Program-made: the position numbers and the translations under genes
Shown: positions 8,909-48,200 of the stretch, piece after piece
Position numbering within the stretch: the first letter of the stretch is position 1
Layout: each line of letters starts with the position of its first letter
The notes under the pieces: model-generated
The model's input: the letters and a program-made list of their open reading frames with translations, nothing else
Database searches by the model: none
What the model was told of the DNA's origin: nothing
NCBI RefSeq assembly: GCF_964355755.1
Contig: NC_092678.1
Coordinates: 8,696,422 to 8,760,421, forward strand
Direction of reading: 5' to 3'
Length of the DNA stretch: 64,000 bases
Origin: Antedon mediterranea
Lineage: Eukaryota; Animalia; Echinodermata

Positions 8909-9160
8909 CTATAGGCCTAAGGTAATTATTTGGCTGTAATTGTGTTGTTTATGTTGGAGGTATCCAGGCAGTAGCAGTAGTAATTCCCAGTGGTTTTCTT
9001 TGTTTTTGCGAGTTTTGTTGACATCGTGGTCTACTGCAATAACTCTGAAATTTGCAATCGAGTGACCAGCTGAATTACAATTTTCGGCTACAGGTTGATC
9101 ATGCTTTAATGTTTTGATAGCTGATTTGTGTTGTGTTATTCTCATACGGAGTCGAGTCGC
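8909..9160 (-). mobile_element. Penelope-like retroelement fragment (GIY-YIG endonuclease C-terminal part)
   Basis: RITQHKSAIK..QPVAENCNSAGHS..FRVIAVD..RKNKENHW resembles the Penelope GIY-YIG region. Confidence 0.7.
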
Positions 9161-12900: not shown

Positions 12901-13314
12901 TGGTCACCACAAAAAATAAAGAAGATCTATATCACAATGATTTGCATAAAATATGGGCTCACCTGAACTTAAATATCACCTTTTTTTGACGACCTAGAAA
13001 TTCATGAAGAGTATTAGCAAGTTACATCTTTGACAAATATTGTAAATTATTTTTAACAACTGCATGGAAAGAACTCAACGAAATTTATAATATCCTTCCA
13101 TAACACAATCTTTTACTTTTCGCTCAAATGTATTGAATGTATTTTTATAACCTACAGTAATGTTTATATAATTTTTAATGTAATAATATTTATAAATGTT
13201 TTTATTTGATTGTGTATTAAGATAATAAGTCCATATCTATTTTATTTTGTTGCACATCTCTTGAGAATTGTGCCTTGTTATAAAAGAGAAACAATAAAGT
13301 TATTATTATTATTA
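9945..13314 (+). mobile_element. Decayed LINE (APE endonuclease and RT fragments, (TTA)n tail), interrupted by a Helitron
   Basis: IIVLGDFN/GKFTW/DYVL at ~10090-10300. RT remnants LFWAD, KWRMVFNFNKSNV, ALYGELGW and KARSNSLPLEGR at 11912-12960. AATAAA plus (TTA)n at 13293-13314. Confidence 0.8.
11703..11911 (+). mobile_element. Helitron 3' end (family B); 5' body probably extends to ~10600
   Basis: Matches the reverse complement of 22070-22257 and ends CTAGATGGTACGCGAGCGAAGCGAGCGTACCATCTAG|T. Confidence 0.75.
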
Positions 13315-14184: not shown

Positions 14185-15420
14185 AATTTTAAAGATAAAT
14201 ATCCCTAGCCTTAATAAGTTTGAGTATGTCAGGTGTCATCCACGGCTGAGAAGAGTGTCTAATTTGGACTTCTTTTACCGGAGCAACTTTATCCAAAACA
14301 TTTGTGAAATTTGCACAAAAGGCTTGCCACGAGCAATCAACGGTTTCTGCCTTGTGAACATTGTGTCCCAATCAGTCTCTTGAAGAAGACGTATAAACTT
14401 TTCTCTATTATAGTATTTAGTTGATCTAATCTTCACCTTTTTATGCGTGTGGTGTTTTTGTCGCTGTATGTGACGAGTGGCATATATAGGAAAGTGATCA
14501 CTGAAGCCTATATATAGCACTCCGAATTTGTTTAGTTTGTCCGAAGAGTTGGTAATAATATGATCAAGACAAGATTCGCAGGAATCACAGATACGTGTGG
14601 GTTCGCTCATAAATTTGAGACATTCCGCTGATGTGCAGAGTCTGTTAGAATTTGATATAGTTGCTATCCCCTTTCAAGCTACACATGTTTGTATCTCCGA
14701 AAATCTAGATCTCTGAGTTTCACGGTAGTTGTTGCATAATGTCATCCATTCCATCAATAAATTCACCATGACGTTGTTTTGGTGGCCGATAACAGACTCC
14801 AACGATAAAAGGCATTGTTCTTGGGAGATGTACTTCAGACCACAGTGCCTCAATGTTGGCATTGTCACAGTCAGATCGCATAGTAATGGCCAGGGTAGAC
14901 TTGAAATATAGACATACTCCACCACCTGCTCTGACACGGTCTCGACGATATAGTTGGAAGTCTGGGATATGTATTTCATTATCGGCAATGGAACTGTCAA
15001 GGTGCGTTTTAGTGACATCAATGACTGCGACTTTGGTTCCACCAACAAGTGTTCTACGTTCAGATATTTTGGGTAGTAGAGACCGCGCATTAACATGACG
15101 AAAATGCATGCCTTTCCTTTCAGTACCTCTGCAGGATCAATGATAGAGTCCGAATTACTGCTGGAATCATTGTTGATTCCACATACTAGTGGATCCAAGT
15201 TGAGCAATGCATTGTTTTCATTTGTACAGAGGAGATACTAAAGAATGAATAATTCAGTTTTGGGAGTGCACAAAGATGGCAGCACCATTCAGAGGACCTA
15301 TTTTTAAAGAATTTTCTAAACATGAGGATTAATGTAGACACAACTAGCATGGACATTCCTAGAACAATCAAAGTATTTAAGCTGTTGTCTGTTTTTGCAA
15401 TCTTTCTTTCAATTGAGTAT
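14185..15420 (-). mobile_element. CR1-like LINE fragment (PHD remnant plus APE endonuclease)
   Basis: WCCHLCALP, HVNARSLLPK, YRRDRVRAGGGVCLY, VGVCYRPP, LDHII, SDHFPIY, PWMTPDI; frameshifted. Confidence 0.85.
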
Positions 15421-19760: not shown

Positions 19761-22700
19761 ATGGCAAAAGCTAAAGAATGTGAGTAAATTCTTTACTGGA
19801 TTTGTCAAACAAAATGATATTTTGCTATTCAGAGACTGCGGCAATTAACAAACTCATAGAATAATAAATAAAGACGCATACAACATAAGTTCTGGCTTAA
19901 ATAGTTTAATTAGTAAATGAACATTCACCCATGTAAAACTGCACATAAAATTCATAAGCAAATATAAGTTATATAGCAATAATTTTCCAATTCTAAGTAA
20001 GCACAACAGGGATGCTCAGAGAAAAATAGCCCGCGGCAGGTGCCAAGCCAAGGCACCGCCAAGAGCAGCCCACATTATTACAGTTGACTAAGAATAGAAT
20101 GATTATTGTATAGCAAAATAAACTATGATTTTGTCCTGAGTGGCGAGTAAATATATTAATGAGACAACCATCTTTAAATAGAGATGTCATTTATTACATT
20201 AAATGACGAAGATAAATGTATGCTATACGTAAAAGTATGGGCCGTGCTACCGTTAGTGGACATGTTAGTCTCGTTTACTTTTTTTTGACATAGCAATACC
20301 ATCAAAGCAATATCTACGAGATTGACTTCGTGAAGGAGTGATCTAGAACTATTACAAATCAGAAAGAAAAATAAACTAATATTGGTAGTAATAATAATGT
20401 GTATTATTATAAAAGTAAAACAAGTCAAAAAATAAAGAAATAGTTGGTTGTCATTTGTCGCACTTTTATTTTGTCATTGTTGGTTCAATAATATACATTT
20501 TGTTTTTATAAGCCAAATGTAACATATTATACATTTATTTATTTAACTATAGCAAGGCATTTAATGAATAGGCAAACTGCCTTATAACTTAGGCGTCACG
20601 CTTTCCATATGATTGTTTGTTGCCTACGTTCCTTGTTGTTTTATCATGCTAATTACTCTCTTATTTACATACAACCTGTCATATTGGTATAAAAGTACTC
20701 TGGGCGTTGTTTTCTGTTCTTCTGATGATGAGAATAGTTTCTCGAAACTTGTCACATTTTTAAGGCAGTTTGCCTATTCATTAAATGCCTTACTATAGTT
20801 ATTTTAACTCGTAAGTTCGGTGGAATCATTCATGATTTATTTATTTAGGCCTATGTTCTTTTCTATCAATATTATTTAATACACCGTATTTTGTGTATTT
20901 CTTTATAATGTTATGGTGGAAATCATTTTTCATCGGTAGGTCCATGGATACACAAGAAGCCAGGAGGACAAGACGACAAACGTAACACACGATGTACCCC
21001 TCGGCGCATAATTTTATGTTTATCGATACCTAAAAACAAAAAACAAGTAACAATTCTAAATTAATACTGTTGATCCTGCAGCGATTTACAAATCATATGC
21101 GGCGGCAATATTGTTTTTTTTTTCTTTTCGTGGTAATCACCCTCCTTTATTGCAATTTCTTCTCATTTTCATTAACATGACTTAAGAGGTATTTATAAAC
21201 GTATTCATTTACAAACCAATGTATAATAGTATAAATAATTCTGTCATTCTTAAAACGATATAGATACATATTTGGCATAAATAGACTATACAGATGAAGC
21301 AATATTCTAGTACAAATTCAATCGTTTACTTGCATTCGCGCAAAAAAAGCGGTGCTCATCAGAACTGAAAAAAGGTCCAATTTGTAGAACGAGGTCTTTC
21401 CTGAAAAAGTATCATTGTCAGTAACCCAGGAAAGCACACAACAGGTGTTAGTTGGGGCGAGATTATTGCAGCCTCGATAGGTACTATTCGCAAAATCATT
21501 TTTTTAGTTTGTTCTGCTTCATGGTCTTCGATTGTAATTTTATTTGAATATATATATAAATTATTAATTTACTAACAGTATTGTAGGAATAATTGAAATA
21601 TTATTAATTTCATTCGTTGTGTATTTTTCTACTTCTTTCTTACCTGCTTCATTGGCCATTTGTGCAATTTTGTCTGTAGAGAAAATACAGAAAAATTACA
21701 GTATAATATTCTGCTTCCACTTCATTTAATCTGCATTATGCATCTGTCTAGAATTATGGCATTTTATAATTGAGAAAGATTCATACGCTAATGGTATAAA
21801 GCGGTGTGGCGTGTTCATAATCAACTTTCAAGTGTGTTTCTGATTTTTGTTTTCAAATAATAAACTCCTACACGCGTATTTCTTTGATATATAGTTTGTA
21901 TGGAGTTGGATAGCCGAGTGGTTAGGACACTTGACTGTCATACAAATACACCCGGGTTCAATTCCCGACAACTCCCTGATGAGTACCTACGTTGAAAATA
22001 CTAGGGAGAAAAAAGGCGGCGTGGAAAGGAACTGGTCACACTACCACATATTGCCGAGGCTTAGTACAACTAGATGGTACGCTCGCTTCGCTCGCGTACC
22101 ATCTAGGTCGTACCCACAGATGGTTCTCGAATACACAGTAATTTCAGCGTAACAAAACTGGCGATTTCAAATACATTGTCGTTTACAGAAACGAATAAAT
22201 AGACACGATGATTTATGTAGTAAACTAAAATTAACACCCTGGGAATTACTTCCGAAGGAGAAACTTATCACAAAATGAGTCCAAATTTTTGATTTGGACT
22301 TATTTAAAGAAACCCAATTTGTGTTTTGTATGTAACATTAGGGTTGAGGGATGGGAAAGCGGATAGGTACAAAGAAGAACAATTTTTAAATATATTCTTT
22401 ATCCACTCAGTAACGAAATATTTCTTTCATGTTTTATAGGCCTATAAATAATATAGGCCTACATCTAAATACAGTAAAACATTTGCGATTTAATACTTTG
22501 TTAAAACTGTCACTGTCATAATCGATTGAAATATTAAAGTACACGATACACCACTACGACGTTTATATTTTTGGTAATTATTAATTAATACAAACGTTGA
22601 GAAGGAACTGTCAGTATAAAGTTTATTTGTATATAATAATGTGTTTATATATCTAACAGTAGAGCCTATCCACAATCTCAGTAATAAAGTTTATTTGTAT

Positions 22701-25700
22701 ATATTTTTATATTACATCTAACAGTACGAACATTCACAGTAAGAAATGTTCGATTCAAATGAGGACCAACAATATATTTAATAGGTATTTACAGTATTGT
22801 CGAAGTATTGCAAGTATATTCTCAAAGGCCCATATATTTACCTACTTTTGTTAAACTCTGGCAGACTGAGAGATTGGGATGTTCCATTCATCTCAAATCA
22901 ATAAATTTGTAGAATCGTATATTAAATCTATCAAAATAGTATTTTTAAAGAAAATCGGCCTGTCTTCAACATTATGATGCTGTACTCTAGCTGTTCGACC
23001 GGTTTCCAGCCATTAAAAACAATTATCGTAGGAGGAGATAGGAAAATGCGAAGCCTCCTCGCATTTTTGTGGCGGGTATTTTTCAAGATGGACATCCATT
23101 AGACAGTGTATACTACGATCGGAAAACACCCCTATTTGGGGCAAATCGTTGAACCTAAATTCATTTTAATCGTCAATAAATAATTATCTAACTTAATTTA
23201 ATTAGTAAACAGGGTTACACCAGATGGTTAAAATCAATACCGAAAGTACGAACCAACTTTATATACCATCGAGTACAAATTCTAAAAGTAAGGCGCGATT
23301 TACCGAATTTTGCCCTTACGTAAATTTATATATAGATTGTCAATTAATCGGTAAATAGAACTATTTACTTATAAATATACTATTTACTAATAATTAAAAA
23401 ATAAGTTAATAATTCTAATAGAATTTTTTACAAACCCTATAATATATAATGCGTAATAAAAATGGAAATAAATAGCATTAACCAATGCAGAACTAGTTAG
23501 ACAATGTATGTACACATACTAATGCATATTAATCTTTTTTTACAGAGAACGCATAGAGTAAGTATAATCTTAAATTATATTTTTTTTTTATTAAAATGTG
23601 AAATTTAAAATACTACTGTACTATAATTATAATGAAATCTAAATTAAATGCACTTATTATGGTCATGACAAAGCATAACACAAGAACTGTGTATTAAATA
23701 ATTGCATTTACAGTATTATTAATAATAATTGTCTAAATTACAAAAAGAAAAAGAAAGTATATATAATAGATTTTTGTTAAAAAATAACATTTTCTAATGG
23801 TAGTAGGCGTGTAACCTTTCAAATCATAAGAAAATCAAGAATAAACTTATTATATTATAATAAATAATATAATTGCAGTGCGTTGCAGTCTGCAATTCAG
23901 ACATATTTATGCATTATTTATGTAAACATACTAATGAATTTAAACAATTTTTTACAGAGAATATAGAAAAAATCAAGAGTAAGTATGAACGAAAATTAAA
24001 AATTTGTTACGGTTGTTTTTAATTGGAAAGTAAAATGAAATGTTTACACAATAATGTATCTATTTGTGAAAAGGGCTGAATTTTGGCGAGTTATAGATGA
24101 ACTTTCAAGTGGAATCAATGTGAATGATCTGATGAGATGTTGAAGGTTGCCCTCTATGACATAATCGACAACAAAGAAGAATTAAAAGAAGCAACAGCTA
24201 ATAGTTTATTTAAACTATTACATTATGAGGGTTACGTTGTAATTGTTTGGAGTGTTCATTGTGATCTACTATTTGAAGTATTTGAGGCGACAACTCTCTC
24301 AAATACTATCCGAGAAGTATTATAGAGAGAACAAGGAACATTTAATCACTGGCTACAGACGAATGCTAGTTCAAATTGGAAAATCATTAAATGATGAACA
24401 AGTGGACATCCTTGCAAAGCTCTGTAATGTTGAAACAAACGTATCAGAAGATTCTTGGAATTTAATTAACAGATTGACTCAAGGCAAAATTGAAGACACT
24501 ATAGAATCTTTGACGAAATTCGTTGAAATTCTGAAAGACCAACAAGATTTGAAACATATCATTAAAATTGTAAGATCATTTGGTAAGTACCGATGTCTTT
24601 TTACAGCAGCATCGTTCGATTTAAATTGTAATCAGATGTGTTCTTCTAGGACAAGATTAAACCTCTTTCTTCATTATCAAACTAGACAAAAAAAGGTACG
24701 GTAGTGATATGTCCATATTTGGGCACATCACATGTTTTTGCCCAATAATGTTTGATAGTATAGACAGCGCTTTAGACACAACATTTTCTGTATTTTGTTT
24801 GTTGTGTTTTTTTCTTTATTTAAGCAGCTTTAATTGATTTTAAACAAATATAATAATAATAGTATTTACATGCATCAAGAAACCAAATGTACCACCTTGG
24901 CAAGTTTACAAGTTGTCATGCAGCCAGCATGGCGATAACCAGCAAAGATGGCACATTGTATTACGCTCGTCGCACTGTGTATATATTGAACCACATTGGA
25001 ATAATAATATGTGTACATTTTGTTTCAGTGCAACAGAAAAAACTGAATGAAGGTAAGTCAAAACGATAAAGAATAGTGGCCTAGCTGTAAACGTTTGTAT
25101 ATGATACCGTATGCGAGTATCTAATGGAAAATATTAAACTTAATGTGTAAATTTTTATACAATAATGTGTTTATTAGTTTATTTTGTATTACACATGTTT
25201 GCTTTTTATATTTGTTTTAATAAAAATGTTAATGTAAAAACCATTTAGGCAAATAATATTCCTTTCCCTTAAATGTTGAGTTAAGTTATGCTACTTACAT
25301 TTTTTAAATCGTTTATCTCTATGACAAATTAAGCAATTACTTATACACTATGTTCCTTGGCTGAATTGTATAAGCAGCTTCACTAAAAGACATATCATTA
25401 CAGCAAACTATTTATCTTCATTATACGGTATATCTCAAAATGTGAAATCACAAAAATCTTTTTTTTTATAAATCTCATTAAAAATGTCATTGAAAGTATT
25501 CTCACTTTTAGTATTATTTTGTGGTTTACCGTGGCCATGTAAGGATAAGTTGGAACTAAACGTTTTGTTAATTATGCTTTATTCGAATAATTTTTGATAT
25601 AAAAGAATAACTAAAAAAACGCATTCAATTTAACAAGACCCAATCCCATTTTATGCCCTAAGTATTAACCATTTGCCATTAGAGCACTAAGAGAGTGATG

Positions 25701-28700
25701 TTCCATGGTTTTTTTTACTTTTTTTGTATTGTCCTGTGGTCTCAGAGCAACATCAATGTCTTTTATGCAAATGATATAATACATGAAATTATGAATTATT
25801 TTTATTTGCATTATATGTGCCTTAAAGTTCCTATTGAGGTGTTGGCGAGAGGTCAAGAGGCTAAGAATGCATTTCTTGATGCCATAAAAGAAGGCAGCAA
25901 ACCTATATACCAAACACGTCTAATGCTTGTAGGACAAGAGCGTGTTGGTAAAACCAGTCTAACTAAAGCACTCACTGGTCAACAGTAAGTAGGCCAAATT
26001 GTTTGTGTTTTAGAGTTATTGTGCAACTATTAAAGCTGTGTTATAAATATTTTAAAAATTTCAAATAATAGTCACCTTAATAGTAATAGTATGCAAATTA
26101 CATAAGCACTGTTATGTAATTAACTAATATAAATATTCTGCTATCCTGTATTTATGTGAACTTAGATGTTAAACCTAGAAAAGATATTACTAAACAGTTT
26201 TTGAGTTCTGATTTTCTAGCATTTTCTTTAAGCTCCGAAATCGTGTGTTTACATTGACTCTGAATTAGTACGAGGTTTCAGAATCGTTTTGTAGCCATTC
26301 CTAAAATCCAAAAGGTTATCCGAAAAGATACAAATTCACATAATTATACTGAAAAAACTTTACGATAATGCGAAATGCAAAATCTTAGTAAACACAAAAT
26401 ATGTTAGAGTCATAGAAAATAAAGGAATCACTACATACATTGGAACAATCCTATACTAAACAAACAAGTTAAACATCTAAACTTAAAGCCAACAATTTGA
26501 ATACTTTACGTGAACTCACGCAGAAGCAAGGTCTTACATACTTTGATAAATACACTTTTTTTAAATGCGGTTTTTAGTCGCGTGGACGCGACTCTATAGT
26601 TCACTATGTCGGTCGGTCGGTCTGTCGGTCTGTCGGTCCGGTATCAGGTCGGTCCGGTTTTATCGCTTTTCTGTACTTTTTGAAATGTTTTGAACATTAC
26701 ATTACTTTTTGAAAGTTCATTTTTTTCACGCGACTTATGGCTGTTGGCCTTGTTTTTGTGAACTTACGTCTTTTAGTTTAAATTATTAAATACTTTAGTT
26801 CCAGTAATTTACATCGTAAGTTTGAGAAATGTATGTACTTTCTTTAAAAGTTGAATTAGACTATTAGACTTTACATAACTGCAAGACATTCGGGTTTTTT
26901 TTTCTATTTTTTACAGTTTTAGACATTGACCTTAAGTAATCAGTTCAAATATATTTGTTAGCAATTCAGATCATCATTAGTAACATGTTGCAATAACGTT
27001 TTTGATTTTAAAAACAATTCAGCTAATACTGCCCAAGTAACCTGTACATAAATTTTTTTTAACGCTTTGTTTTCTAACACTGTATTGTTTTAATGAATAT
27101 TTATATTGCCTGAAAGGTTGTGTCATAGAATGTGTTTCAGATATAATATACAATACATTACTTCTAATATTTATTTAGATTTGATGCTAATGAAAAAGTT
27201 ACTGATGGAATCGAAGCATCATTGTCATGCACAATTAATGTTAAGCATACTACTAACTGGACACCAAATCAGAGTAAAGGTATAAACTTAAACCTCTTTG
27301 AATGAGCGGCTACCACGAACATTATGTATTGACATTATTTCATTCTACAAATAGCAAGAAGCCTGTGTGCCAAATCTTTGTTTTCCTTTGATTCATTAGG
27401 CATGCGCTTACCTGACTTATTCAATCGCTGTCAATCATCCTTGCATGTGTATCCATTATTTGAAAGTTATGGAACTGATGCTTTTGTGTCCCCACAAAAT
27501 GAGTATTTACATGGTATTTCTGGCCATATCCAGCTAAAAAGATTCCAGCTAAGATTGTCATAAATTTAAAGTCTTAGGTAACTAGTGTTGTTTACTACTT
27601 CCAATAATTCCTTTCCCACCTAGATATTCAGAGATCCAAGAGCGTAAAGTAACTACAGTCCTTTAGCTATTATACAGTGTTGAATGGTGCCAGCATTATT
27701 ATTATTAGGCCTATTTGCAAACATTTAACATTGCATTAATTTTTACTATTCACAGAAATAAACAAAGCACGACAAGAATATATAAGAGCTCTTGCAGAAC
27801 AAATTGTAAAAGATATTTTGCAGGATAAAAAACAGAAACAAAAGGTTAGAACAATGTGATTAAGAATATCACAAATTAAATTTAAACAATCTGTTTGTAT
27901 CATAATGACTGTGTTTTAATTATATAATTAAAGTTATGTCATGATTTACAATATACAGAAATTAAGGGAAGACGACAAGAAAAAGCAAGAAAATAAAGAA
28001 GTCGGCAGTTTTGCTGATCCAGAGGAAGCAAATCCAATAACGTATTTAACTTCTTCACGTAAAGGTATGACATTTCTTTTTATAAAATATCATGTTTCAA
28101 AGTTCAAAGTTCTCTTTACAATATATATAAATGAAGAACAAACAACAAGTGTGAGTAATTTGCCTCACTACTGCCTCACACTTTATTTTTATAATTATAT
28201 AATTATTATATATTTGCAAATGTATTGTTTAAACTAGTTAATAATTAGTGCCCACATTAAACACATGCATAACATACATGTCTTTTTTTTCTGTTAGAGA
28301 AAAAAAGAAAGAAAGAAACATTGAAAGAAAGGGTGGCAAGAGCAGTTAGGGAAACATTTAGAATGTTTTTGACGATGGAAAGAAAAAAAGGAGAAAAACA
28401 ACAGGTTTGTTTCTACTCCGTTTATTGTATAGTTTTTAGTTTAAATTTATTAGGTTCTGGACAGAACAAATGCTATACAAAGGTAAACTTGGACCTAAAA
28501 TATTGTTTGAAACAGCGAAACAAACTTAATTATTTCAGAGTCCACAGCACGCTACATAATGTGGATGCAAACTTTATATAATGTATTATTTAATCAGGAC
28601 GTATAAAAATGTAAACATTTGATTTCATTTTCTAAGAGGTTACCTTGCTTATTTAATTCCTCCTTTGCTTTTTTACATGCACTGTATCCTACTGAGTTTT

Positions 28701-31700
28701 TTTTATTTTGGTTAATATTCAGAGAAGAGAAATTGCAAAAAATAAACAGGAATATGTAGAAGCTGGTAAGGTTTATTGAAATTATAATATCTTTTAATTA
28801 ATTAGTTACACTTACTGCTACTACCTAGTTGTGTGTATATAAATTATTTTATATATTACGAAAGACAATGCTATGAACATTGATCAATTATGCATTTGTG
28901 ACAGCAGTACTGGCAAGGTTATATCACTTCTTATAAACATTTTTTAAAAAGGAATGAGCATGAACAGAAAACATTGTTGGAAGAGAGTGAAGAGTTAAAT
29001 GAGACAATTGATGACAATTAATTTTCTGTATTAAATTAAATTTTGTAATGTTATACTGAAATATGGCTCCATAAGTGTTTTGCTTTTTGACATTTTCTTT
29101 ATCTTGATTTTGGTCAAAATAAAAAGATATATTTGAAATAAAATTAAAAGAAAGAAACAATGTATCCAATGCTACGTTAGTTGAACAGGAGACCACAGTC
29201 ATTCAGTTCTAAAACAAGGATTATGAATCACGCAGTAAACATAAGTTACAAGTCGACTTTCCATTTGTTTCTCACAATAACTTAACACATTAATCGAGCA
29301 AGCTGTCTGGTAATTCAACGTAGTCTAGTAGTTGACTTACAATTATACATATTAATACAATAAAGAACACAGGTAACTAAAAAACAACCGCAAAAAACGG
29401 ACTATATCCCGTTCACCTGTGCTATTGCTATTTCAATTAAGAGGATACAATACTAATTTAAGTTGGGTAACACCATCCGAATCATACAGAGATTCTTAGA
29501 AGGAGTATGAAGAAATCGCTGTAGCATGTACGTTAAACGTATTAAATGTGCAAAAACAGTTGAATGTAATATCTGTATGGAATGCATATAATGTATTAGT
29601 AAGATAATGTTAATGTCGGAAAGTAATGAGTAGCTTTGTGGTGGTGTACAGCTTATACAATAGTGAAAGACATGCAATGTTTAGCAATTCGATTACGTAT
29701 ATGTGTTTTTTGTTGTGTTTTTTAACAGCAGTTGATGCATCTTCACAAGTCGAGCTAGCTACACTAATGACACACGATACTCAAGAAGATGTTACTGAAC
29801 TGGTTGTAGACATGCTTGAAGAAAAGAGAAGATATGCAGATAAAAACTTGTTGGAAGAGAGTAAAGAGTTACAAGAGACAATTGATGATCTGACTCTCAG
29901 CATTTGGGATTTTTCTGGACAAGATCTTTATTACATTACACATCAGGTAGCCATAGACATTTTCAAAATGTTTTAAACTATTAGCCCTTGTTTATTTGTT
30001 CATATAATTTTAGATCCTGACCGGAGATGACATTTTTTTTTCAAAATTCAAAATTAGGACAAAGCCTTCAAAGCATGAAATTTTACCCAATAAATGTGTC
30101 GATCAAAAATGACTATACAACCTTTAGTCTATTGCTATTAATTACTTTATTTATTGTACCTAATGTTATTTAAAGCAGGACTAGGCTTCTATATCTTTAG
30201 AAAACTTATAGCTATTCAACACAAGAGTGTACTTTAAATAAACCAAATCTATAGAATGAATTGATTCATGTAGGCCTAAAGGTAAATAGACTAATTCAAT
30301 TAAAAATATTTGTTTTATTTGCTGTTTTTTTGTTTTGTTTATGTGATTATTTACATTTTAATATTAATAATCAAACTATAATGCTATCCTTAGATCATTT
30401 GTAATTCTTACCTAATTAGTATTTTATATTCAGTTGATTTATTTATTTTCTTTTGACAGATGTTCTTAGTATCCCGTGGTATTTACATTATCTGTTTTAA
30501 TCGCTGTCATGACCTCAATGCACCATCTAGAGTACAAGTATTTCATAGGGATTATGGGAAGGTGAGGTACAGATATTCCAAAAACAAGTTGAAATAGTAA
30601 TAGTTTGATTGTTTAATATGTATTTGAACTAAAACTATCATTGTATTCATTTGGACATAAAGTTATTTTACTTAGATTATAATGTTTAAGTTAATTTAAC
30701 TATTAGAGTAAGATTAAATTAATTAGTTTATGTAGTTTAACTTAACATGAATTAAAATGAATATTTAAGTTTAATAAGCATGACGTAAAAATATTCTAAA
30801 CTTACAGATACAGATACAGATACAGATAACTTTTATTGTCCAAATAAACTGGAAATTGCATTTGCTCACTTATCACATAAAAATATCGTATAAAAATATC
30901 GTATAAAAATAAAGTATAAAATGTAGAATAACAATATAAAAATACACAATGATTAAAAAAGTACATCATAAAATTACAGCTCAAAAATATTAAAGTTAAA
31001 AATACAGATCATAACAAACCGGTTTAAAAAGTGTCTTATATTTCATTATTAATTATTATATTATATTATTTATTATTGTTATCAAAATTATTGTAGTTAC
31101 CTCTTAAAGTCATCGTTAAATTTTTTAATCCCAGCTGGGAGAAACGAATTTGAGTATCGACCCGTCCGGGCCAACACCGGCCTCAGTCTACCACTTCTAC
31201 CAATGTGGCAGCGAAGAAGATCCGAATGAAGGGGGTGGCTTTCCTCCTCCATGACCGCCTGTAAACCATTTTTCAATCGTTCTCCGTAGTGACAATCGTA
31301 GACTGAGTCCGCTGTCAGCGCCGACGAGCCAATCACTCTTAATGCCCTTTCTAACACTTTACATATGCGGCCCTTATCTCCTTTGTTTATGTTCCCACCC
31401 CAGCCTAATAGGCAATAATCCCAGATTGAAAAAATAACAGATGAATAAAACATAGTAAGTATCTCTTCCCTTACCCTAAAAACGTTCATTTTCCTCAAAC
31501 AGTACAGTCTAGTATTTAATTTTTTAATTAGTTGATCTACATGCTCTCCCCATGATAAATTATTGTCATACGTTACCCCAAGATACTTATATGTTTTAAC
31601 GATTTCTACCTCATGTCCTTTAATCTGGACAGGCTCAATTTCCCTTCTTTTTTTACGGCGGAAATCTATTCGCATTTCTTTGGTTTTTGCTACATTAAGT

Positions 31701-34700
31701 TCCAGGAAATTTTCATCACAGTATTTCGTAAACCTAACTATTTCAGATTTGAAATTTGTATCGTCATCCTCTTTTATTAAACCTATCATAGCAGAATCAT
31801 CTGCAAATTTAATTACTGGACAGTCCGGGAACCTAGGTTGGAAATCCGACGTATACAATGTGAACAAAAACGGTGCAAGTACAGTACCTTGTGGTGCTCC
31901 CGTATTTGTCCGAATAATGTCCGATCTGACATTTTGATTTAGCCTAACAAACTGGAGACGTCCAACGAGGAAGTTAAAAACGAACGAAATTAGTAAATTG
32001 GGGATATTCATGCCGAACAACTTATTAATTAAAATGTGTGGTTGGATGGTATTGAAAGCTGAACTAAAGTCGAAGTACATAATCCTAACAGACGGGGATG
32101 TTCTCCAATTGTCAAGATGGGCATACATTTTTTCATTTTTGTATATTAATGCGTCTTCAGTGTTCCTGTTTCTCCGATAAGCGAACTGATGTGGGTCCAA
32201 AAAATCTGCAACTAATGGTTTCAGGCTTTTTAGAACAATCTTTTCACAGACTTTCATTGGGACGGATGTTAGCGCAACAGGTCTAAGATCGTTATAACAC
32301 TGTATATTTTGTCGTTTAGGGATTGGGATGATGCATGACGTTTTCCAGGATTCTGGCAAGGTTTGTGTTTCAAAAATCAAGTTAAAAATATATACAAAAA
32401 TATCTGCCAATTGGGTTGCGCATAATTTAAGAACTTTGGGTAGAATTTGGTCTGGTCCAGCTGATTTGGATGCTTTCAGACCTTTAAAGTGGCTGGTAAC
32501 TTCATCCGCATTTGTCTTAAGGTCAAAACCACTTTCATCTGGTAAGGCCAACCTACTTTTGATTAAGATCTGTTCATCAGAAAAATTATAGCGATCGAAC
32601 CTATTAAAAAAAGTATTTAATTCATTAGCATATTGTTTAGTCAAATTTGACACAATTCCACTTCCTTGTGGCGATTTTGCATATCCGCTCATTTGCCTCA
32701 TTCCCCTCCAAACCTTACTCATATCATTACCTACAAAATTTTCTTCTATTTCACGTTTGTACTTTAGTTTACTTTTACGTATTACTCGTTTAAGTTCCTT
32801 TTGGATTTTATTTAGCTCATTTACATCACCTTGATCGAAGGCCTGTCTCTTTTTCTTAATAACATCTGTCACCTCCCTATTTATCCATGGTTTACGGTTT
32901 CCGTAGATTTTAACTTTCCTTTTTGGTATTACATTTTCAGTACAAAAGTTAATATATGCACTGACCGCTTCCGTTACCTCGTCTGACCCGTTTGAATTTT
33001 CCGTAAAAACACTCCAGTCCGTAGTTTCAAATTCGCATTTCAGCTGTTCTATTGCATCTTGAGTCCACTTCTTTACAGTAATGACCCTGGGTTTCTGCCG
33101 TTGTACTAATGGACGATACTTGGGTTGTAGTATAATTAAATTATGGTCAGATTTACCAAGTTTCGGCAATTTTCTTGCTAAATATGCGTGTTTTACGTTT
33201 GAATAACATACGTCAAGGGTAACAGATTCCCGCGTGCTGCACTTCACATGTTGGTAATAGTAAACGCTACTCTTTTTTAGGGTACAATGATTAAAGTCTC
33301 CATTTATTACAATATATGCGTCAGGGGAAGCCGTTTCAATTTCCGCTATAACTACGGTTAGTTCTCTTTGTGCTTCCTTGGCCAGATTTTTGTTTGGTAT
33401 GTATACAACCACTAAAACAACATGTGAAAATTCCCTCGGTATGTAGAACGGACGTATTGAGAGTACCATTATTTCAACGTTAGGCGAGCAGCTGTTTTTC
33501 TTTAGATGCACATTATTTGGGTGACAATACCTTTCGCTTATATATGCCATAACACCGCCTCCTCTATTTTTTCCGGATTTAACCGTTGTACATTGCAAAA
33601 ACACAATTACTGAACACTGATATCTTTTATCAGGGGTTTTGTAATATTATACAAAACATTTAAAATTTCACCTAGGTACACTAGTTACATATTTTATGTA
33701 CTTAATATTTTATATGTTAAAATAATGCATACTAGACCCGATTCTGCTACCGTCAAGAGGTATATATCTATAAAACTATAGCCAGTTATACACGTTCCTG
33801 TCTTCAGAAATGCTGTAATTTTAACGTATAGAGGGCGCTATATATAGTAAATATCTTGTGTTTTATAGATAGATACCTCTTGACAGCTTCTATGATCAAA
33901 TTTAATTGTATTTGTCCACAGCATTTTTTACATTGGTCTCTATGAGCTGTTATTTTTTCTGAATGTACTTAAACTTCATTTACTGCATTTCAGATAAGTT
34001 AATGGGGAAGCTTAGTATGTTATTTATTTATACATGCAACTATTATTTAACATTGCATAGATTTTAGATGCTGATCACTACATGACCAACTTGGATCGTG
34101 TGCTTTTCTGGTCACATTCAATCTACTCACATACAAGTACAACAGACAATAAAATGTCAAACCTGAAACAACTTTCACCGCCTATATTTATTGTGGGCAC
34201 TCACGGAGAAAGTCTGCCAGGCAATGATGAAGATAAACAAGTTCTTGTGAGTATGATATGTAAGCTTATATCATTAGAACCCAGCACTGGAAAACTTTAT
34301 TTAAATCATTTTCATTAAACATTTTTTTCACTATTAAGGAAAGCTTTTAAGGGAAAACCATATGAAGGCCACGTTGTGTTCAAGTACTATGCCATTGATA
34401 ATAGCATCAGATCACCATTGGATGAGTTCATTGTTGAGCTTAGAGATCATATCACAGAGGTGGCTAAAAACGAACCCTATATGGGGGAGAAGATGCTATT
34501 AAAGTGGTTGAATTTCTTGCATGAAATTGAAAAGTTACGTGCACAGAATGAACATTCAATTACCTTCAAGCAGGCAAGTAAAAGTCTTTGTAAATGCATA
34601 CTATGTGTAAATGTATACCCCTAGTGGATGAATATATTATTCTGTAAACGTTTAAACAATAAATTGGTCAGTTTAGATTTTTTTAGATTTTTGAAAATGA

Positions 34701-37700
34701 ATAATAAGAACGGTGTATGATTATCCAGTTAGTAGTTAATATAATACGGTATAATAATCATCGTCTATTTTTAGTCAACAAATCACATTCACTTTTTTAT
34801 TGTACGTACCAATTATGTATTTCATTATGTTGTCTATTCATAATATTGAAATGTGTATTCAAATTCCAGGTAACTAAACTAGCTTCCCAGTGTCATATTA
34901 CAAGACAAGATCAATTGTTTGCTATGTTGCATTTTCATCACGACCTTGGAAACATTGTTTATTACGGAGAACGAGATACACCAGATAGCGCCCTCAATGA
35001 CATCATCATTATAATACCTCAATGGTTGATTTTCATTTTCAAGCTAGTTATCACAGTTAAAGATCCTTCAGATCAAGTATGAGATTTTGTTTCTTTAATT
35101 CTATTTTATTATAGTACTGTACTTGTGTTCAACATACATTTAACATGTGCTTAATTCATAGGTTCACCTAATATTGTTTGATGATAGTATCTATATATAA
35201 ATTTACGTAAGGGCAAAATTCGGTAAATCGCGCCTTACTTCTAGAATTTTTACTCGATGGTATATCAAGTTGGTTCATACTTTCGGTAATGATTTTAACC
35301 ACCTAATGTAACCATGTTTACTAATTAAATTAAGGTAGAGAGTTAGTTATTGCCAATTAAAACAAACTTAGGTTCAATGATTTCCCCAAAATAGGGGTGT
35401 TTTTCGATCGTCGTATACACTGTCTAATGAACCATCTTGAAAAATACCCGCACACAATAATACGAGGATGCTTCGCATTTTCCTATCTCCTTCTACGATA
35501 ACTGTTTTTAATAGCTGGAAACCGGTTGATCAGGTCGAGTACAGTATCATAATGTTGAAGATGATTTTCTTTAAAAAATACTATTTGAAATCGCCAGTTT
35601 TATATCGTGGAATTACTGTGTATTACTATGGACACGACCGAGTATTAGTAATTATCAGTCAACATTCAAAAAAAATAATTTCCAGCAGCCTAATAATACC
35701 ACATTGTTTTAATATTGTCTGCTTGCATAAGTTAATTGTATACTATTTAAACTCTATTTTACATTATTTGTAATCCTGTTTTTGTAGTGGGCTGAGTTTA
35801 GAAGCTCTTGGAAAAAAAACTTGATGAAGAGGGTCTCCTAGAAGTGAGACTACTTAGACGTATGTGGCAAGACTTTCTTGAAAAAGTTGAAGCATTGTTA
35901 GAGCTGATGCAGAAGTTTGACTTACTGTGTATCAGGACTCAAGCAATTAAGGTACAGTTGGAGTGGTAGTAGTGGAAAAAAGCTTCCAGCTTGATTTTGA
36001 ATCATCAGTTGTTTCACACAATTATGTAAATATATAACACTAAACCAGGAAGCAAATAATAAAAATGTTTAAAATAATTTTTAATAATGCATTGTAACAA
36101 CAATATTATTACATTAATACAACCCTTTATTGAGTCTTATTAGTAAATATTTGACTTTCAAAAAGACGATCGTCTCTTCTATGTGCCATCACTACTGAAG
36201 GAGAATGACGGCGATGAAATGGTGTTACTTGACAAACTGACAAAGTTAAAAACTGCTGCAGTTCTTTACGTTGACTTTGATGGTTTCCTACCTGAAGGAC
36301 TGTACTATCGACTCGTAGTAAGAATCGTGCTATGGTCACAACAGAGGAAGCTTGATGAGGGATATAATCCTAGGCTCTTTTACCAGCAGGTGAAAGTATA
36401 CATTGATCACAATCATGATGCCATTTTCAGGATCCTGCCTGAAAGAAGATCTTGTATCCAGGTAGGCTAGGAGTGCTTGCAACAAGTGTAGATGCATGTT
36501 TTTAAATTCGAAACACGACGTTTTTTAATAGGAGTTAACATTCAAATTTATTTTCTCTTTAATTTGAAACCCTATTTTATATAATTAACAATTAAACAAA
36601 TTTCATATTATGATTTTGTATATAATTTCTATTCGTTATCTATATTTCAATTATACTTTAAACCATTGTATAATTGCTTAGAATTTCCACAAGAAGAAAG
36701 AGTAATATTGCTATAGTGTACATGGTTAATAATAGCTTATGCAATTGAAAACAAATGTTTCTAAATGAACAAACACCTTTCTACTTTACAATCATTAAGT
36801 TAATAACTTTAATATTGAATGAAAGATTTGTGTCATATTTATTTCTGTATAGATTGTTGTTTACAGACTTAAAGTTGGTCATGAACAGCTTGAACCATCC
36901 CCAAGTGTTTGCAAAGAGGTGTGTGCTGGGTTACAGCTTTTTTATATTAAAATCCTGTTTGATTGAGAGTATAAATTGAAATTATAAAGTATTTTTTTAA
37001 AAGTAGACTGCATTTAAAGGCATTTCGTGTGTATGTTAGCTTAAACTTAAACCATCAATTAATCTATCTTGTATTTCTGATTAACAGGTACTTGAACTCA
37101 TTGCAACAAACCTACAGGACATTGGCCAAAAATGGATGAAACGTGTTGTTTTTACAACTGTGTTCTGTCCATGCAACGTTTGTTCCATTGAAAAAGTCCA
37201 CTTGCATAAACTTGAAGAATGCCTTGAATCAACTCCTCGATATGGGCCGGATGATGAAATGGATACTCGCAAAATCAGACGTTTGTTTGGAAAGAAGGAG
37301 GAAAATCCAGGTACAAAAGAAATAAATAAAAATAGTCTTGGAAAAGACAGAAAACCATCTTTAAAATAGCATTTATTGCAATACTAACACCTATTCTTCT
37401 CTCTTTCTAGATATAGTAAGTCAACATAATATGTACATACAAAATAATAAAAAAAAAAAAAAACTAATAAGTTAATAACTAATAAAAATATTCCAAATAA
37501 AAATATCTATATTATGACCATTTTGAGACCAAATATAAATCTCTACCTTCATTATTTACCGAGATATAAGACAATTTGGTGTTATAGGCGGCAATTTTAA
37601 GAAATGGCTGCCAAAAATTTTCCTCTAGGAGTTGAGTTGGAACTAATTGATAGATGTTAGTAGACATGTTTCTGAGATTTGAGAAAAATTTGCTAACAAG

Positions 37701-38466
37701 CCCTAACTAATTATGTTCATGAGTAATATAAACCCAATCGAGAAACTGGGAAAGATTACTATTCTATACTGTATTCAAATGCTACAGTGTCTCATACGTC
37801 TTTCAAATATGAAAACTACATCAAAAGTCATAAACCATGACCCATCCTTCCATGATACAGGCAACACGTGCGACACTGTACTAAATTTACCTAGAATACT
37901 GGACACATAATGCTATTTATGTGCAGATACAGTACGGTACTGATAGTTAAATAAAAAGTGCAATATTCAAAACGTCTTCCTCCTTGCATCTCTTTTAAAC
38001 TGTTCACCTTTTACATATAATATAAGTCAACAACAATTCCACTGAATGAAACAATAAGCATGGTAACCACTTTTCTAAGCAACCATGTATTTGTGTTATT
38101 TCAGCATGCGAAGACACTGCTCAAGATAATCTCAATGTTCCAGGATATCTGCGATATCTCATTGGAATCTATAAAGACATCCCGTCACCTATCTTGCCAT
38201 TTGATATAATGACAGAGGTCTGCGTTCTCTTGGACCCCAAAAACATAGCAGACTATAATGACTGGCGTGGTGTAGCGTGCAAGGTTGGCTACGATCGTTA
38301 TATAAATCACTTGGATACCACAATGAATAGCCCTACTATGTGTGTAATGTATGAATGGTGTGAGAAAGGTTTGTCATTGGAAGCTTTTAAGGCTTGTATG
38401 AATGACATGAATCGTAATGACGTTGTACGTTTGATTGATGAATATCTTACTAATAAAGAGGTCTGA
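19761..38466 (+). CDS. ROCO-family protein: tandem DED-like domains - Roc GTPase - COR - Death domain (multi-exon; possible recent pseudogene)
   Basis: Exons: 19761-19779 (tentative), 23546-23557, 23958-23978, 24074-24582, 25029-25052, 25828-25984 (GQERVGKTSL), 27179-27279 (TDGIE), 27756-27844, 27959-28064, 28298-28404, 28723-28765, 29729-29946 (IWDFSGQDLYYITHQ), 30460-30561, 34061-34246 (PIFIVGTH), ~34340-34573, 34870-35076 (FHHDLGNIVYY..PQWL), 35788-35951, ~36166-36461, 36853-36918, 37088-37310, 38105-38466. Most junctions are phase-compatible. Confidence 0.85.
20547..20798. mobile_element. MITE with ~37-bp TIR
   Basis: CTATAGCAAGGCATTTAATGAATAGGCAAACTGCCTTA ... TAAGGCAGTTTGCCTATTCATTAAATGCCTTACTATAG. 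Confidence 0.75.
21902..22069 (+). mobile_element. tRNA-derived SINE, cut by a Helitron
   Basis: A box TAGCCGAGTGG, B box GGTTCAATTCC, acceptor-like GGAGTTG/CAACTCC, poor anticodon stem, followed by a non-tRNA body. Confidence 0.6.
22070..23336 (-). mobile_element. Full-length non-autonomous Helitron (family B, ~1.27 kb)
   Basis: Minus strand A|TCTATATATAAATTTACGTAAGGGC ... hairpin-CTAG|T, no TSD, colinear with 53247-55129. Confidence 0.85.
24074..24582 (+). CDS. ROCO exon encoding two tandem death-effector-like (DED) domains, with two frameshifts
   Basis: EFWRVIDELSSGINVNDL / MLKVALYDII..LFKLLHYEGYV..DLLFEVFE and YRRMLVQIGKSLNDEQVDILAKLC..WNLINRLTQGKIEDT..FVEILKD resemble DED helices. The reading frame shifts near 24133 and ~24287. 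Confidence 0.6.
25828..25984 (+). CDS. ROCO exon: Roc P-loop (G1)
   Basis: VPIEVLARG..EG..TRLMLVGQERVGKTSLTKALTG, with AG and GTAAGT borders. Confidence 0.9.
26571..26756 (+). mobile_element. HINE/DINE-1-like element
   Basis: TTTTAGTCGCGTGGACGCGACT, then a (GGTC/TGTC)n tract, then the CACGCGACT subterminal inverted repeat and a GGCC hairpin, with T-rich flanks. Confidence 0.6.
29729..29946 (+). CDS. ROCO exon: Roc G3 / switch II
   Basis: LSIWDFSGQDLYYITHQ matches the Roc consensus WDFAGQxxYYxTHQ. Confidence 0.9.
30803..33590 (-). mobile_element. 5'-truncated Rex1/Babar-like LINE with uninterrupted 835-aa APE-RT ORF, inside a ROCO intron
   Basis: ORF 31097-33604: RPFYIPREF, GDFNH, GKSDH, LRPVALTS, HQFAYR, DFSSAFNTI, GAPQGTVLAP, KFADD, YKYLG; (TCTGTA)n tail at 30803-30827. 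Confidence 0.92.
33752..33884. mobile_element. Small MITE-like inverted repeat
   Basis: GTCAAGAGGTAT..TCTATAAAAC ... GTTTTATAGATAGATACCTCTTGAC. Confidence 0.55.
34870..35076 (+). CDS. ROCO exon: COR domain
   Basis: MLHFHHDLGNIVYYG..LNDIIIIIPQWLI..K.VIT is the COR-A signature. Confidence 0.9.
35190..35648 (+). mobile_element. Internally deleted Helitron (family B) in a ROCO intron
   Basis: A|TCTATATATAAATTTACGTAAGGGC start; jumps to the 3' segment TTTGAAATCGCCAGTTTT at ~35585; degenerate end. Confidence 0.75.
38105..38466 (+). CDS. ROCO terminal exon: Death domain
   Basis: LLDPK..NDWRGVACKVGY..SPT..YEW..SLEAFKACMNDMNRNDVVRLI is a MyD88/IRAK-like death fold, in frame from the acceptor at 38105 to TGA at 38466. 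Confidence 0.85.
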
Positions 38467-45256: not shown

Positions 45257-48200
45257 ATGTTTAGCAAAGGATGGATTCTGAGGTTACTAATTCTAGTTCT
45301 GGTTCAGTGCCTCGTCTGCTCATCTAAAAACGGTACGGTAGGTCTGATGGCTAATCTGATAATAGGTATTAGGCACCTTGTTACAACCTTTATAGAAAAA
45401 TGACCAACAGTAACATTGACTATACAGCTTACTATGTCGGTCGGTCGGTTGGTCGGTCAGTCGGTCAGTAGACACTAACTTGAGCACGCGACTGCAGCCA
45501 TGTATATGGCCTTGTTAAAATTATTTAGGTCTATTTGAATTTGAATTTGTATGCTATGTTCAGACCCGAACTAGTGGTCGTTCCTTGAAACCTGGAGACA
45601 AACCTAGAACATACTCTGACTTAGTTTCTGACTAAATAAATAAGCCTAGGAAATAGTAGCCCTAGCTATCGCAGATAATAAATTAAGTCTATTTGTCTGT
45701 TTTATATTATGGATCAAACCGTAACACACCTACAACTGTTCTAAATTCTTAATATCTGGCATATTTATTTGAATATCGAATGTCAAGCCAAGCCATGTGA
45801 AAAGTCGGCAAATTGGCACAGCAGGGTTGCACTTTCTTATGTTTTTATAGTTTATCTCAATCCAGGTAATTGGTTTGACTTTTTATTCTTTGATAATGTC
45901 CAAACAATACATAACTGAATATTGTTCTGAAAGGTATGAGCTAATAATAGGAACTTGCTTCTTCGTTCTTGCTTTTTCCACGGACTACAGTTATAAACGG
46001 CAGATTGTTTTTTGAAGGCTTGGGCTATTTATATGATATTTTATGCGTGGTATAGTATACATTCGTTCTGAAATGAAAAGTATGAATTTGCACTTTATTG
46101 CGTGATGCTCTTTCAATCAAACAATAGCGCCTAATTTACTGTTTCAACTACCATAATTTCAACATTTTTTTTATATTGTGTGCCAGCAAATGCAATACCT
46201 TAAACAAACCCAAGCGCCACATTAAACATAGGTTTTGTATTCGTTAAATGGGGAGAAAAGTTTTATTCTTTGAAAGCATGACAGTCAATCTTTCAACTAA
46301 TACAAATATTATTTTCATTCAACTCATACATATTGACTATTGTTTGTGTTTCCTCTACAGTTTCTCCAAATGTAACATGTCCGAATAATATTATTGCATA
46401 TTCTCGTTACACAAAACCTGTAACATGGGATCCACCAACAGTAACTGATGATGTTGATACTGATCTGGTTGCAACTTGTACGCCACCTTCTGGTTCATCG
46501 TTTAATTCTGGTTCTAGTCGTACTATAACATGTACTGCAACTGACAGTAGTGGTAATACTGATGAATGCACATTTACTGTAAGAATGGCAACATGTAGGT
46601 CTATTTGTTTAGAGTTTGTATGTTTGCAAATATTATTTACGTTATTTTATGTTTTTACGTTATTTTATTGTGACTTACAATATTATAAAAGAAAAAAAAG
46701 AAATACAGTTTAATCTTATTTGATATGAAGAAGCATTTCCACTCATACCATAGGCGGATCCAAATGGGAAAAAGAAGCATTTTTCAAATCCAATACAAAA
46801 TGCTGTAAGCGTATGTTGTATGTTACGGTTATAACGAATAAAGATACCTTACAGCCCTCTATGTCTATGTATGTGGCACTTCATTAAAAAGTATAGATAC
46901 AACTAAAATAATGTATTAATGATAGTAAATTACCACTATGTGAGTTGTTATTTAGTTTCTGAAAGCCCTGCTAATTTTTCGGCTGTTTTTAAAATTTTCG
47001 GTTTACTTTTATTTTGTTTCTCTATTGAGATCAAGCCACTGATACCCACAGCATTGCCATTTTTCAGTAATTTTCCGTTGGATTTAAATCTAATAATAAA
47101 TATTCTATTATCTATAAAATATTATCATCATAATACACTGTGTGTAATGTCGAACAGGCTATTATTATATTTCTAGATATAGGGATCGATGTACAACTCG
47201 ATCCATTCCTTGATTCATGTTTATTTTATTATACAGCTGAAGTTACAGTAGCATCTATAGCGAAACCGGCTTACCAGTCGACAACCTATACTTACAGTGG
47301 TGTAACATATGACGCTAATTTAGCTCTTGACGGTTCTATTAATACATGCTCACGTACTATTGGTAAGTGATGACACCTAAAATAGCAGATAAGTGATATT
47401 ACTACAAATAATCATAAATACAAATAATATACTTTTTCTTATAACTAGTTAGACTCTACACTGTTCAAAATCCAGATGCTGTTATACCAATTTTAGCCTA
47501 TTAAGACCATCTAGTATTTCCACACAAAAATGAAATTTATTATAATCATATTATTTAGTTTACAAATTGCTTACCAATGTTGTAGAATGGGCCTACACCC
47601 CTTGGGGTGTTGATTAAGAAAACAGTTACTAAAAGTAATATTATTTAAATTGATTTTCCTTGGTGTTGCCTAATGGAATTATTGTTTTGATTTTGTTTCT
47701 TACAGTTGAAAGCAACCCTTACTGGTATGTTGATTTAGGACTTATATACAGTGTTAACTATGTGGTTATACATCCTGCAGTCGGATATGAAGGTATACTG
47801 TATAGTCATTGTTCGTTTTATAAATATAAAATCTGGTATTTAGTTTAATTTATTGGTTGTATTCTTAAAATGTGATTGGTTAATTACCCATCAGGTTTCA
47901 TTCGGCATTACCTTTACCTAACGGAAAAGTGTAATGGTGAAAATCAACACGTTCTAATAATAAAAATATAAAAAATAATAAACATGGCTGCTAAGATAAG
48001 ATGAGTTGTATGTTTGTCAAATTTATAATTATCATTTTACTGTGTGCCAAATAACTTTTTTGATCCTATACTGATCATCATCAAAATCAGATAGTTATTA
48101 TTCTCTTTGGCAACCTCCCACAATTTATTCAAATTCGGAAAACTTTGCATAAATGAATAAATGTTCCTGAAAACTTGATCTGTGCACTGATGTCTAGAAA

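Follow-up and report, generated by a model that had tools for sequence, protein, structure and literature searches.

A 64,000-nucleotide stretch of AT-rich animal DNA from the crinoid Antedon mediterranea (contig NC_092678.1, positions 8,696,422 to 8,760,421; hereafter the window, to whose whole length all coordinates refer) carries on its plus strand a gene of the ROCO family, in which a Roc GTPase domain is followed directly by a COR region. Twenty exons, 23546-38466 (+), can be read by comparison with paralogs as one gene, with modules in the order DED-like pair, Roc with a long charged insert, COR-A, COR-B and Death (Table 1). Read in the homologous frames, the model comes to about 1,050 residues with 69-78% identity to the paralogs P0002, P0003, P0004 and P0009. 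The acceptor is AG in 20 of 20 exons, and the internal donors are GT in 18 of 19 cases and GC in one (CAG/GCAAGT, 34573-34575), the same donor that RefSeq model P0001 uses. RefSeq models just the COR-Death half of the locus, as P0001, a product of 511 residues that is 100% identical to the window exons. The exon phases fit one another at every junction from the first micro-exon (23546) to 35951, as expected from the proposal that these exons splice as one gene, but the frame they carry is broken by five lesions. Phase-1 introns join both the N-terminal module and the Death exon to the core, an arrangement that would fit exon shuffling.

The first-pass annotation of this DNA had begun the gene at 19761. 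The phase-1 donor of that candidate exon leads to a stop with each of the three downstream acceptors tried, and the start coordinate is therefore unsupported. By eye, a possible alternative first coding exon lies at 20940-20981 (+), with an ATG at 20944, an end phase of 2 that fits the micro-exons, and a weak donor.

The Roc-COR core is the most readily recognized part of the gene. The window encodes the P-loop (G1) GQERVGKT, the G3 motif WDFSG and, at the G4 position, GTHGE; the first two conform to GxxxxGK[ST] and DxxG, and the paralogs read GQER[VA]GKT and WDFAG. Pfam Roc matches the first part of the domain (25828..27279) at E 0.0035, and COR-A matches the exon at 34870-35076 at E 8e-8, with a second COR-A match at E 0.005 and COR-B at E 0.07. 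Of the features reported in the first pass, G1, G3, a motif at the G4 position and the COR stand. In P0002, P0003, P0004 and P0009, Roc scores 55-58 bits and COR-A 53-59 bits, all above the Pfam cut-offs. The best solved matches of the core are bacterial and archaeal Roco proteins and LRRK2. The insert within Roc measures 154-175 residues in the paralogs and is their most variable part: mean identity is 48% there, compared with 84-88% for the Roc core, 77% for the Death domain and 67-69% for the DEDs. Variation at G4-G5 is known for Roc, as is length variation of the switch I region for Roco proteins. A partial duplicate of the Roc G3 exon is seen in an intron at 28926-29014, where 70 of 88 bases are identical to 29799-29888.

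Three full-length Antedon mediterranea paralogs, P0003, P0004 and P0009 (1075-1081 residues), run from the DED pair to Death and bear out the predicted order DED-DED-Roc-COR-Death. Death scores above the Pfam cut-off in two of the three, and a family profile finds it in the third. A search with one COR exon as query returned nine crinoid proteins, P0001 among them. A contig from run X7, which we guess to be RNA, departs from the DED exon precisely at the donor, passes through the micro-exon and enters the Roc exon; because 16 of its 118 letters differ from the window, we take it to be a paralog transcript. For the RNA-seq check suggested for the DED-to-Death chain, this contig bears on the DED-to-Roc junction of a paralog; among the run contigs examined there was no junction from this allele and none towards the Death exon. 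From the phase chain and the three RefSeq paralogs, we infer that the DED, Roc-COR and Death exons form one gene.

The claim of two DED-like repeats in an N-terminal exon fares well as to layout, for 24074-24582 holds two units, but less well by standard models, which those units do not reach. A profile of the pair detects similar paired stretches at the N- or C-terminal end of other ROCOs. With a second profile, built from 15 such stretches in 13 other ROCOs, P0003 reaches 77 bits and the two broken frames of the window 38.6 and 21.6 bits, against a maximum of 5.9 bits in 200 shuffles. Of the 13 proteins that supplied these stretches, 11 match Pfam DED at E<=0.001 and two exceed its cut-off. 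In the Atlas comparison, where a score below 0.9 is a lead only, the three best matches to residues 1-185 of P0003 are tandem-DED-sized clusters (0.86-0.88); the top match, at 0.88, shares 189 of 256 features, and the third is a v-FLIP-like cluster. An AlphaFold model of the second unit, DED2, has a pLDDT (predicted local distance difference test score) of 74. It superimposes on the caspase-8 DED with Z 9.2 (root-mean-square deviation 2.4, 75 aligned) and on the PEA-15 DED with Z 9.1, and rows 1-19 of its fold search are all death folds; vFLIP and MC159 are among the fold matches at Z 8.1-8.2, and identities in the fold matches are 13-15%. This fold evidence concerns DED2 alone, DED1 having yielded no usable model.

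Several results weigh against calling these units DEDs. Direct Pfam DED scores are 14.3 bits for the window and 10-18 bits for four of five paralogs, all short of the curated cut-off of 35.9, and P0004 has no Pfam DED match. The 15 stretches behind the DED-pair profile were selected with our own profile, which makes that test partly circular. Pyrin domains tie with DEDs in the DED2 fold search (Z 8.3, within 1 Z), the fold-search program itself cautions that helical bundles often give Z values below about 13, and a Foldseek search with the DED2 model returned nothing at E<=0.001. Signalling DEDs typically carry an FL hydrophobic motif and an RxDL motif; in an alignment read by eye, both units of the Antedon pair lack both, and the single DED of P0010, from the crinoid Anneissia, has YL and RLDL. 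A phmmer search of DED2 against solved structures found no death fold, one with P0054 did not extend to its DEDs, and hhalign of DED1 against DED2, with shallow profiles, did not detect a repeat (probability 0.9%, E 0.058). The fold of P0006, predicted from five close sequences, reached pLDDT 43, at which its Foldseek rows are meaningless. We favor DED over pyrin because of the sequence links to DED-scoring ROCO stretches and the Atlas matches; pyrin is described as vertebrate-specific in a passage of PMC2575513. Taken together, the sequence profiles and the DED2 model suggest that the N-terminal units are probably DEDs, but divergent ones.

Word-based searches with the DED pair matched Antedon proteins exclusively (4 of 1818 and 1 of 291 candidates). 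Antedon P0054, P0056, P0094 and P0151 bear the same divergent pair on other ROCOs, at the N-terminus, at the C-terminus, at both ends or as four tandem copies.

The last exon matches Pfam Death at E 5.5e-4 (20.5 bits; cut-off 22.6), confirming a C-terminal Death domain, but not the MyD88/IRAK-like type first assigned to it. Its nearest solved relative is UNC5B (E 9e-6), with IRAK3 at E 0.42, and MyD88 is absent from the five solved-structure matches at E<=10. The crinoid domain is closer to vertebrate UNC5B than to the Death domains of sister ROCOs, as far as scores from different, roughly comparable profiles allow. Possibly it was grafted from a gene of the UNC5/ZU5 type, to judge from these similarities.

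The first-pass annotation missed that the frame is broken. Five lesions interrupt it. Two bases are inserted at about 24132 and 11 are deleted at about 24291, both in the DED exon, whose frame between these indels holds four stops (24141, 24162, 24183, 24240). The exon that follows 34246 lacks its original acceptor and some four codons; the sole polypyrimidine-backed, in-phase AG available to it, 34350-34351, would cost about 13 residues. In COR, the frame is shifted at eight consecutive A near 35812 and meets a stop at 35839, and the donor at 35951 mismatches in phase the acceptor at 36165 (exon start 36166). No open frame runs from DED to Death at this locus, given the stops at 24141-24240 and 35839 and two faulty junctions; this allele cannot make the full protein and is very likely non-functional.

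A public-run contig from X3 covers 24081-24326 with 0 differences and 0 gaps, bridging the two DED-exon indels by 51 and 35 letters and carrying both letter for letter, so the first two lesions are real DNA. The read-contig check covered these two indels; the COR-region lesions 3-5 are known from the assembly sequence. X3 may be the assembly's own sample, in which case it tests assembly error rather than spread in the species. Two observations argue against a gene that is dead throughout the species: the X3 contig has a depth of 132, about half the 229-257 of its flanks, which suggests a different sequence on the other chromosome, and the +2 insertion is missing from one depth-2 contig of another individual. 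The locus may for these reasons not be dead species-wide, and a less damaged allele may still be present in Antedon mediterranea; that a working one survives is possible, at somewhat below even chances. In contigs of a second species, organism B (runs X5 and X6), both indels are absent and intron and exon match at about 94%, the exon being covered over 24074-24499. Among the 40 of 50 differences listed, 19 are substitutions in the exon; they fall in 17 codons, 5 silent and 12 not, and produce no stop. An intact copy in organism B was considered and not established, several of the substitutions lying at residues kept in the paralogs.

Private changes at conserved core positions number 14 of 311 in the window copy, compared with 7 of 304 to 18 of 315 in four paralogs. 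On this lack of excess a long decay was rejected, and recent damage is likely. The window copy lies on a 26-Mb contig, apart from the paralog cluster; P0002, P0003, P0004, P0006 and P0009 each list a 40.9-Mb contig. Recent inactivation, in the birth-and-death manner of immune gene families, is the likely history.

A profile search for relatives returned 428 representatives at E<=1e-30. Pfam was run on 72 of 146 new relatives, chosen by rank, length or DED-profile match, and the counts are biased by that choice: at least 41 of the 72 have a death fold, at least two a kinase and at least one leucine-rich repeats (LRRs). Further modules among the relatives are TIR, caspase, Bcl-2, HEPN, Macro, GT4, NACHT, ZU5 (in at least two), ankyrin and Neuralized. 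DED and Death occur together in one of the 72 among the matches listed, Anneissia P0010, with the order DED-Macro-Macro-Roc-COR-Death; its neighbors P0007 and P0008 have Death or Ras at the N-terminal place. The named members come from crinoids, a brittle star, sea urchins, a sea star, amphioxus, a brachiopod and an annelid. A quick, midpoint-rooted tree (56 labelled rows of the 144 passing the coverage filter, drawn from this clade without LRRK, DAPK1 or MFHAS1 references) places the window gene beside P0003 in an Antedon DED-pair group with branch support (SH-aLRT) of 99. This group adjoins Anneissia genes with DED-, Death- or Ras-Macro N-termini; support is 99 for the crinoid group and 97 for the echinoderm group where these are named, and the echinoderm group lies next to NHR-Roc-COR-Death-TIR proteins. 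By domain matches and tree position, the gene is a member of a large clade of invertebrate ROCOs in which the immune modules around the Roc-COR core have been exchanged. Within the sequences searched, the exact DED-DED-Roc-COR-Death order was found in Antedon only. Elsewhere in the clade, P0072 (Lingula) and P0081 (Owenia) are Bcl-2-Roc-COR-caspase fusions, the Bcl-2 match being strong in P0081 and weak in P0072; as predicted, they would hold a whole apoptosis switch in one chain and are arguably more striking than the window gene.

The surroundings of the gene are listed with its exons in Table 1 where they lie inside it. The intronic LINE (long interspersed nuclear element) ends in a (TACAGA)n tail at 30803-30828. 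Its contigs are near-identical, several times single-copy depth, end at 33587 and are multi-copy in both organisms, and the element likely belongs to a recently active family. Outside the gene, LINE-like frames occur at 1668-5522 (+), 11838-12966 (+) and 14275-15237 (-), the first with an endonuclease match and the others recognized by eye. The flanking genes encode extracellular proteins (7767-9181, 46282-52540 and 62037-62363, all +), with LDL-receptor class B, EGF and HYR exons, and are unrelated to the ROCO gene. Two of their HYR exons, at 46.3 and 62.0 kb, are nearly the same in sequence, and two last exons (51.4 and 52.2 kb) resemble each other.

Table 1. Exons of the Antedon ROCO gene and the element in its intron, in window coordinates.
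Position	Strand	Feature	Basis
19761..19779	+	First-pass candidate first exon, ATG and strong donor	Membership in reading frame unsupported
23546..23557	+	Candidate 12-base micro-exon, phase 2-2	AG/GT sites, open in phase 2; prediction from sequence
23958..23978	+	Candidate 21-base micro-exon, phase 2-2	AG/GT sites, open in phase 2; prediction from sequence
24074..24582	+	Exon with two divergent DED-like domains, broken by two indels	Paralog alignment, profiles, fold model
25029..25052	+	24-base linker micro-exon, phase 1-1	Corresponding spliced junction in one paralog contig, run X7
25828-25984	+	Roc part 1, P-loop exon	92% identity to P0003
27179-27279	+	Roc part 1, switch I region exon	75% identity to P0003
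27756-27844, 27959-28064, 28298-28404, 28723-28765	+	Four small exons, charged insert between G2 and G3	Open, phase-consistent
29729-29946, 30460-30561	+	Roc G3 exon and next exon	Paralog alignment, Pfam
31097..33646	-	Intronic LINE-type retrotransposon, open frame of 849 residues	RVT_1 E 2e-27
34061..34246	+	Roc G4 exon, GTHGE (paralogs GTHRE)	Paralog alignment
34319..34573	+	Roc end and COR start, GC donor; original acceptor and about four codons gone	Paralog alignment
34870-35076, 35788-35951, 36166-36461, 36853-36918, 37088-37310	+	COR exons	Pfam COR-A, COR-B
38105..38466	+	Last exon, UNC5-type Death domain and stop	Pfam Death, UNC5B match

FADD is a small adaptor with one DED and one Death domain only. 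Caspase-8 and cFLIP have tandem DEDs followed by a caspase or pseudo-caspase domain, or by nothing, and an NLR/STAND receptor combines a STAND ATPase with a repeat sensor. The crinoid proteins share with FADD the presence of DED and Death in one chain, and with caspase-8 and cFLIP the tandem layout and the DED fold; they differ from all three in degenerate motifs, in about 800 residues of GTPase between the folds, and in the 13-15% identity of the fold matches. The label of FADD-type adaptor given in the first pass does not fit a protein of about 1080 residues with two DEDs and a Roc-COR core, and is further weakened by the divergence of the DEDs, in which the usual FL and RxDL motifs are missing. 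By Pfam, no caspase domain is present in the paralogs or nearby frames, which places them outside caspase-8/cFLIP, and they are not NLR/STAND receptors, since the NTPase is a Ras-like Roc and the paralogs have no repeats. The reported lack of LRR, ankyrin or kinase exons agrees with our searches, which found none in flanking frames of the window or in the paralogs: of the 90 plus-strand open frames scanned (9.2-24.0 kb and 38.5-46.2 kb, each of at least 42 residues), none matched a Pfam family at E<=0.001, a scan that did not include shorter exons or the gene's introns.

The first pass compared the gene with the four vertebrate ROCOs and left out invertebrate ROCOs with death folds that are already in print. 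The nearest precedents are listed in the Figure 4 source data of Kaur et al. 2021 (PMC8195603): Amphimedon XP_019861208.1, a DED+TRADD-N+Ankyrin+AP-GTPase+COR+Death protein, and an Acropora TRADD-N+Death+AP-GTPase+COR+Death+Death form. Both, like the window gene, set a Roc-COR core without kinase or LRRs between death folds, and the Amphimedon protein likewise has an N-terminal DED and a C-terminal Death; by listed architecture, the window gene differs in having two DEDs and no TRADD-N or ankyrin. That paper treats AP-GTPases as immune switches and interprets the two listed forms as counter-invader or apoptosis proteins. Trichoplax has at least 17 ROCO genes with CARD and death domains, no kinase being named for them (Civiero et al. 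2014, PMC4104024), a lineage-specific Roc-COR expansion with death folds like that of the crinoid family; the word DED is absent from the text of PMC4104024, which also presents Roc-COR as a proposed nucleotide-dependent dimerization device. In our searches and tree, the nearest non-echinoderm relatives of the core are NHR-Roc-COR-Death-TIR proteins, namely Branchiostoma P0011 and MyD88-like ROCO proteins of Aplysia, the latter proposed, in a passage of PMC9334734, as GTPase adaptors in innate signaling. They differ in carrying a Neuralized repeat where the crinoid proteins have the DED pair, in an additional TIR, and in a Death that scores poorly against the crinoid one. DAPK1, a kinase-ANK-Roc-COR-Death protein, shares Roc-COR followed by Death and the lack of LRRs (PMC6337361); the window gene and paralogs have no kinase or ankyrin (paralogs, 90 flanking frames) and add an N-terminal DED pair. 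Brown algal expansions of ROCO immune receptors are described in parts of PMC11378527 as clustered and fast-evolving with many pseudogenes; those carry shuffled LRRs as sensor, whereas the crinoid genes have no repeat sensor. No published account of the DED-DED-Roc-COR-Death order or of crinoid ROCOs was found in a search whose scope stopped short of subscription papers, and the architecture is a real and apparently undescribed crinoid variant of a catalogued kind.

Starting from what was observed directly (the exon chain, the lesions, the domain order in the paralog models, and a clade with changing end modules), we hold at somewhat better than even chances that the window contains a frameshifted, likely non-functional copy whose intact paralogs are nucleotide-switched death-fold adaptors in cell-death or immune signaling. 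Judging by domains only, this is the most likely job of the intact family. The mechanism beyond domain content is argued by analogy with bacterial Roco, for which passages of PMC6337361 describe a cycle in which the protein is monomeric with GTP and, with GDP, forms a dimer that COR holds together. The core of an intact paralog would cycle in the same way, and GTP hydrolysis, by giving the dimer, would set the DED tandems and Death domains of two molecules side by side and so seed a signaling complex. The weakest steps are those at either end, in which the Death domain would dock on an upstream death-domain partner and the DED pair would recruit or nucleate a DED-bearing caspase or regulator. 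Against the adaptor reading, beyond the low DED scores, stand two facts about the proteins. The full-length paralogs are RefSeq predictions, with one spliced junction supported by a contig. The guanine-specificity consensus of G4 ends in Asp, and that position is Glu in the paralogs (THRE) and the window (THGE), with THRN or THKN in relatives, though G4-G5 vary among Roc domains. A further point counts against the GTP-gated signalosome first envisaged: in the cycle of PMC6337361, the monomer is GTP-bound and the dimer GDP-bound.

An improbable alternative makes the intact paralogs switchable decoys or inhibitors, like short cFLIP or viral FLIP, whose DED pair would cap caspase-8-type assemblies. 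No catalytic domain follows the pair, its filament motifs are degenerate, a v-FLIP-like cluster is the third Atlas match and vFLIP and MC159 are among the fold matches; the scores do not, however, tell FLIP from caspase-8, and sister architectures carry caspase, TIR and HEPN at the same end positions, which suggests that these positions hold output modules. We give a little less credence to the idea that the Death domain is the sole output, acting with UNC5/DAPK-type or ZU5-Death partners, while DED pair and Roc insert form an autoinhibitory cap or pathogen bait. The Death domain is nearer to UNC5B than to other solved death domains, is better conserved among paralogs than either of those parts, and stays in place while the N-terminus swaps in Anneissia, ZU5 being found in two relatives; yet the same DED pair stands alone at the C-terminal output position in many ROCOs of the Antedon group. 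Quite unlikely is continued production of a useful shorter protein, either the RefSeq COR-Death half or one starting at the in-frame ATG 24363 in DED2. RefSeq predicts the 511-residue product, splice sites are largely intact and substitutions show no excess, but the RefSeq model skirts the lesions through junctions found in no paralog, a product from 24363 would still run into the COR lesions, and no transcript of this allele was seen in the run contigs examined. That the gene is intact and its breaks are assembly errors is very improbable and largely refuted by the X3 contig with both DED-exon indels, even though one lesion lies inside an A run and read support was examined for those indels only.

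Beyond the adaptor reading of the intact paralogs, it is conceivable, if rather doubtful, that Roc-COR, and not a STAND ATPase, underlies a second, NLR-parallel class of intracellular immune switches in marine invertebrates, with the Roc insert as sensor, the crinoid form as a minimal version and null alleles segregating. If so, a Roc-COR core would swap DED, Death, CARD, TIR, caspase, Bcl-2, Macro and HEPN modules, and the hypervariable GTPase insert of 150-175 residues would stand in for LRRs as sensor or tripwire. The crinoid form would then be the minimal death-signaling version, linking a UNC5-type death domain to caspase-8-type DEDs.

LRRK2, in which the GTPase controls a kinase, dominates the study of ROCO proteins. 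A ROCO free of kinase and LRRs, with death folds as its sole outputs, would give a direct view of what the Roc-COR cycle does, and poses the question of whether nucleotide state controls the clustering of attached domains. The informative gene for this purpose is an intact paralog (P0003, P0004 or P0009), not the window copy, which adds an example of recent gene death, or of a null allele, in a death-fold ROCO family. Through the intact paralogs, function could be tested for the first time among the many immune-like invertebrate ROCOs, so far merely catalogued.

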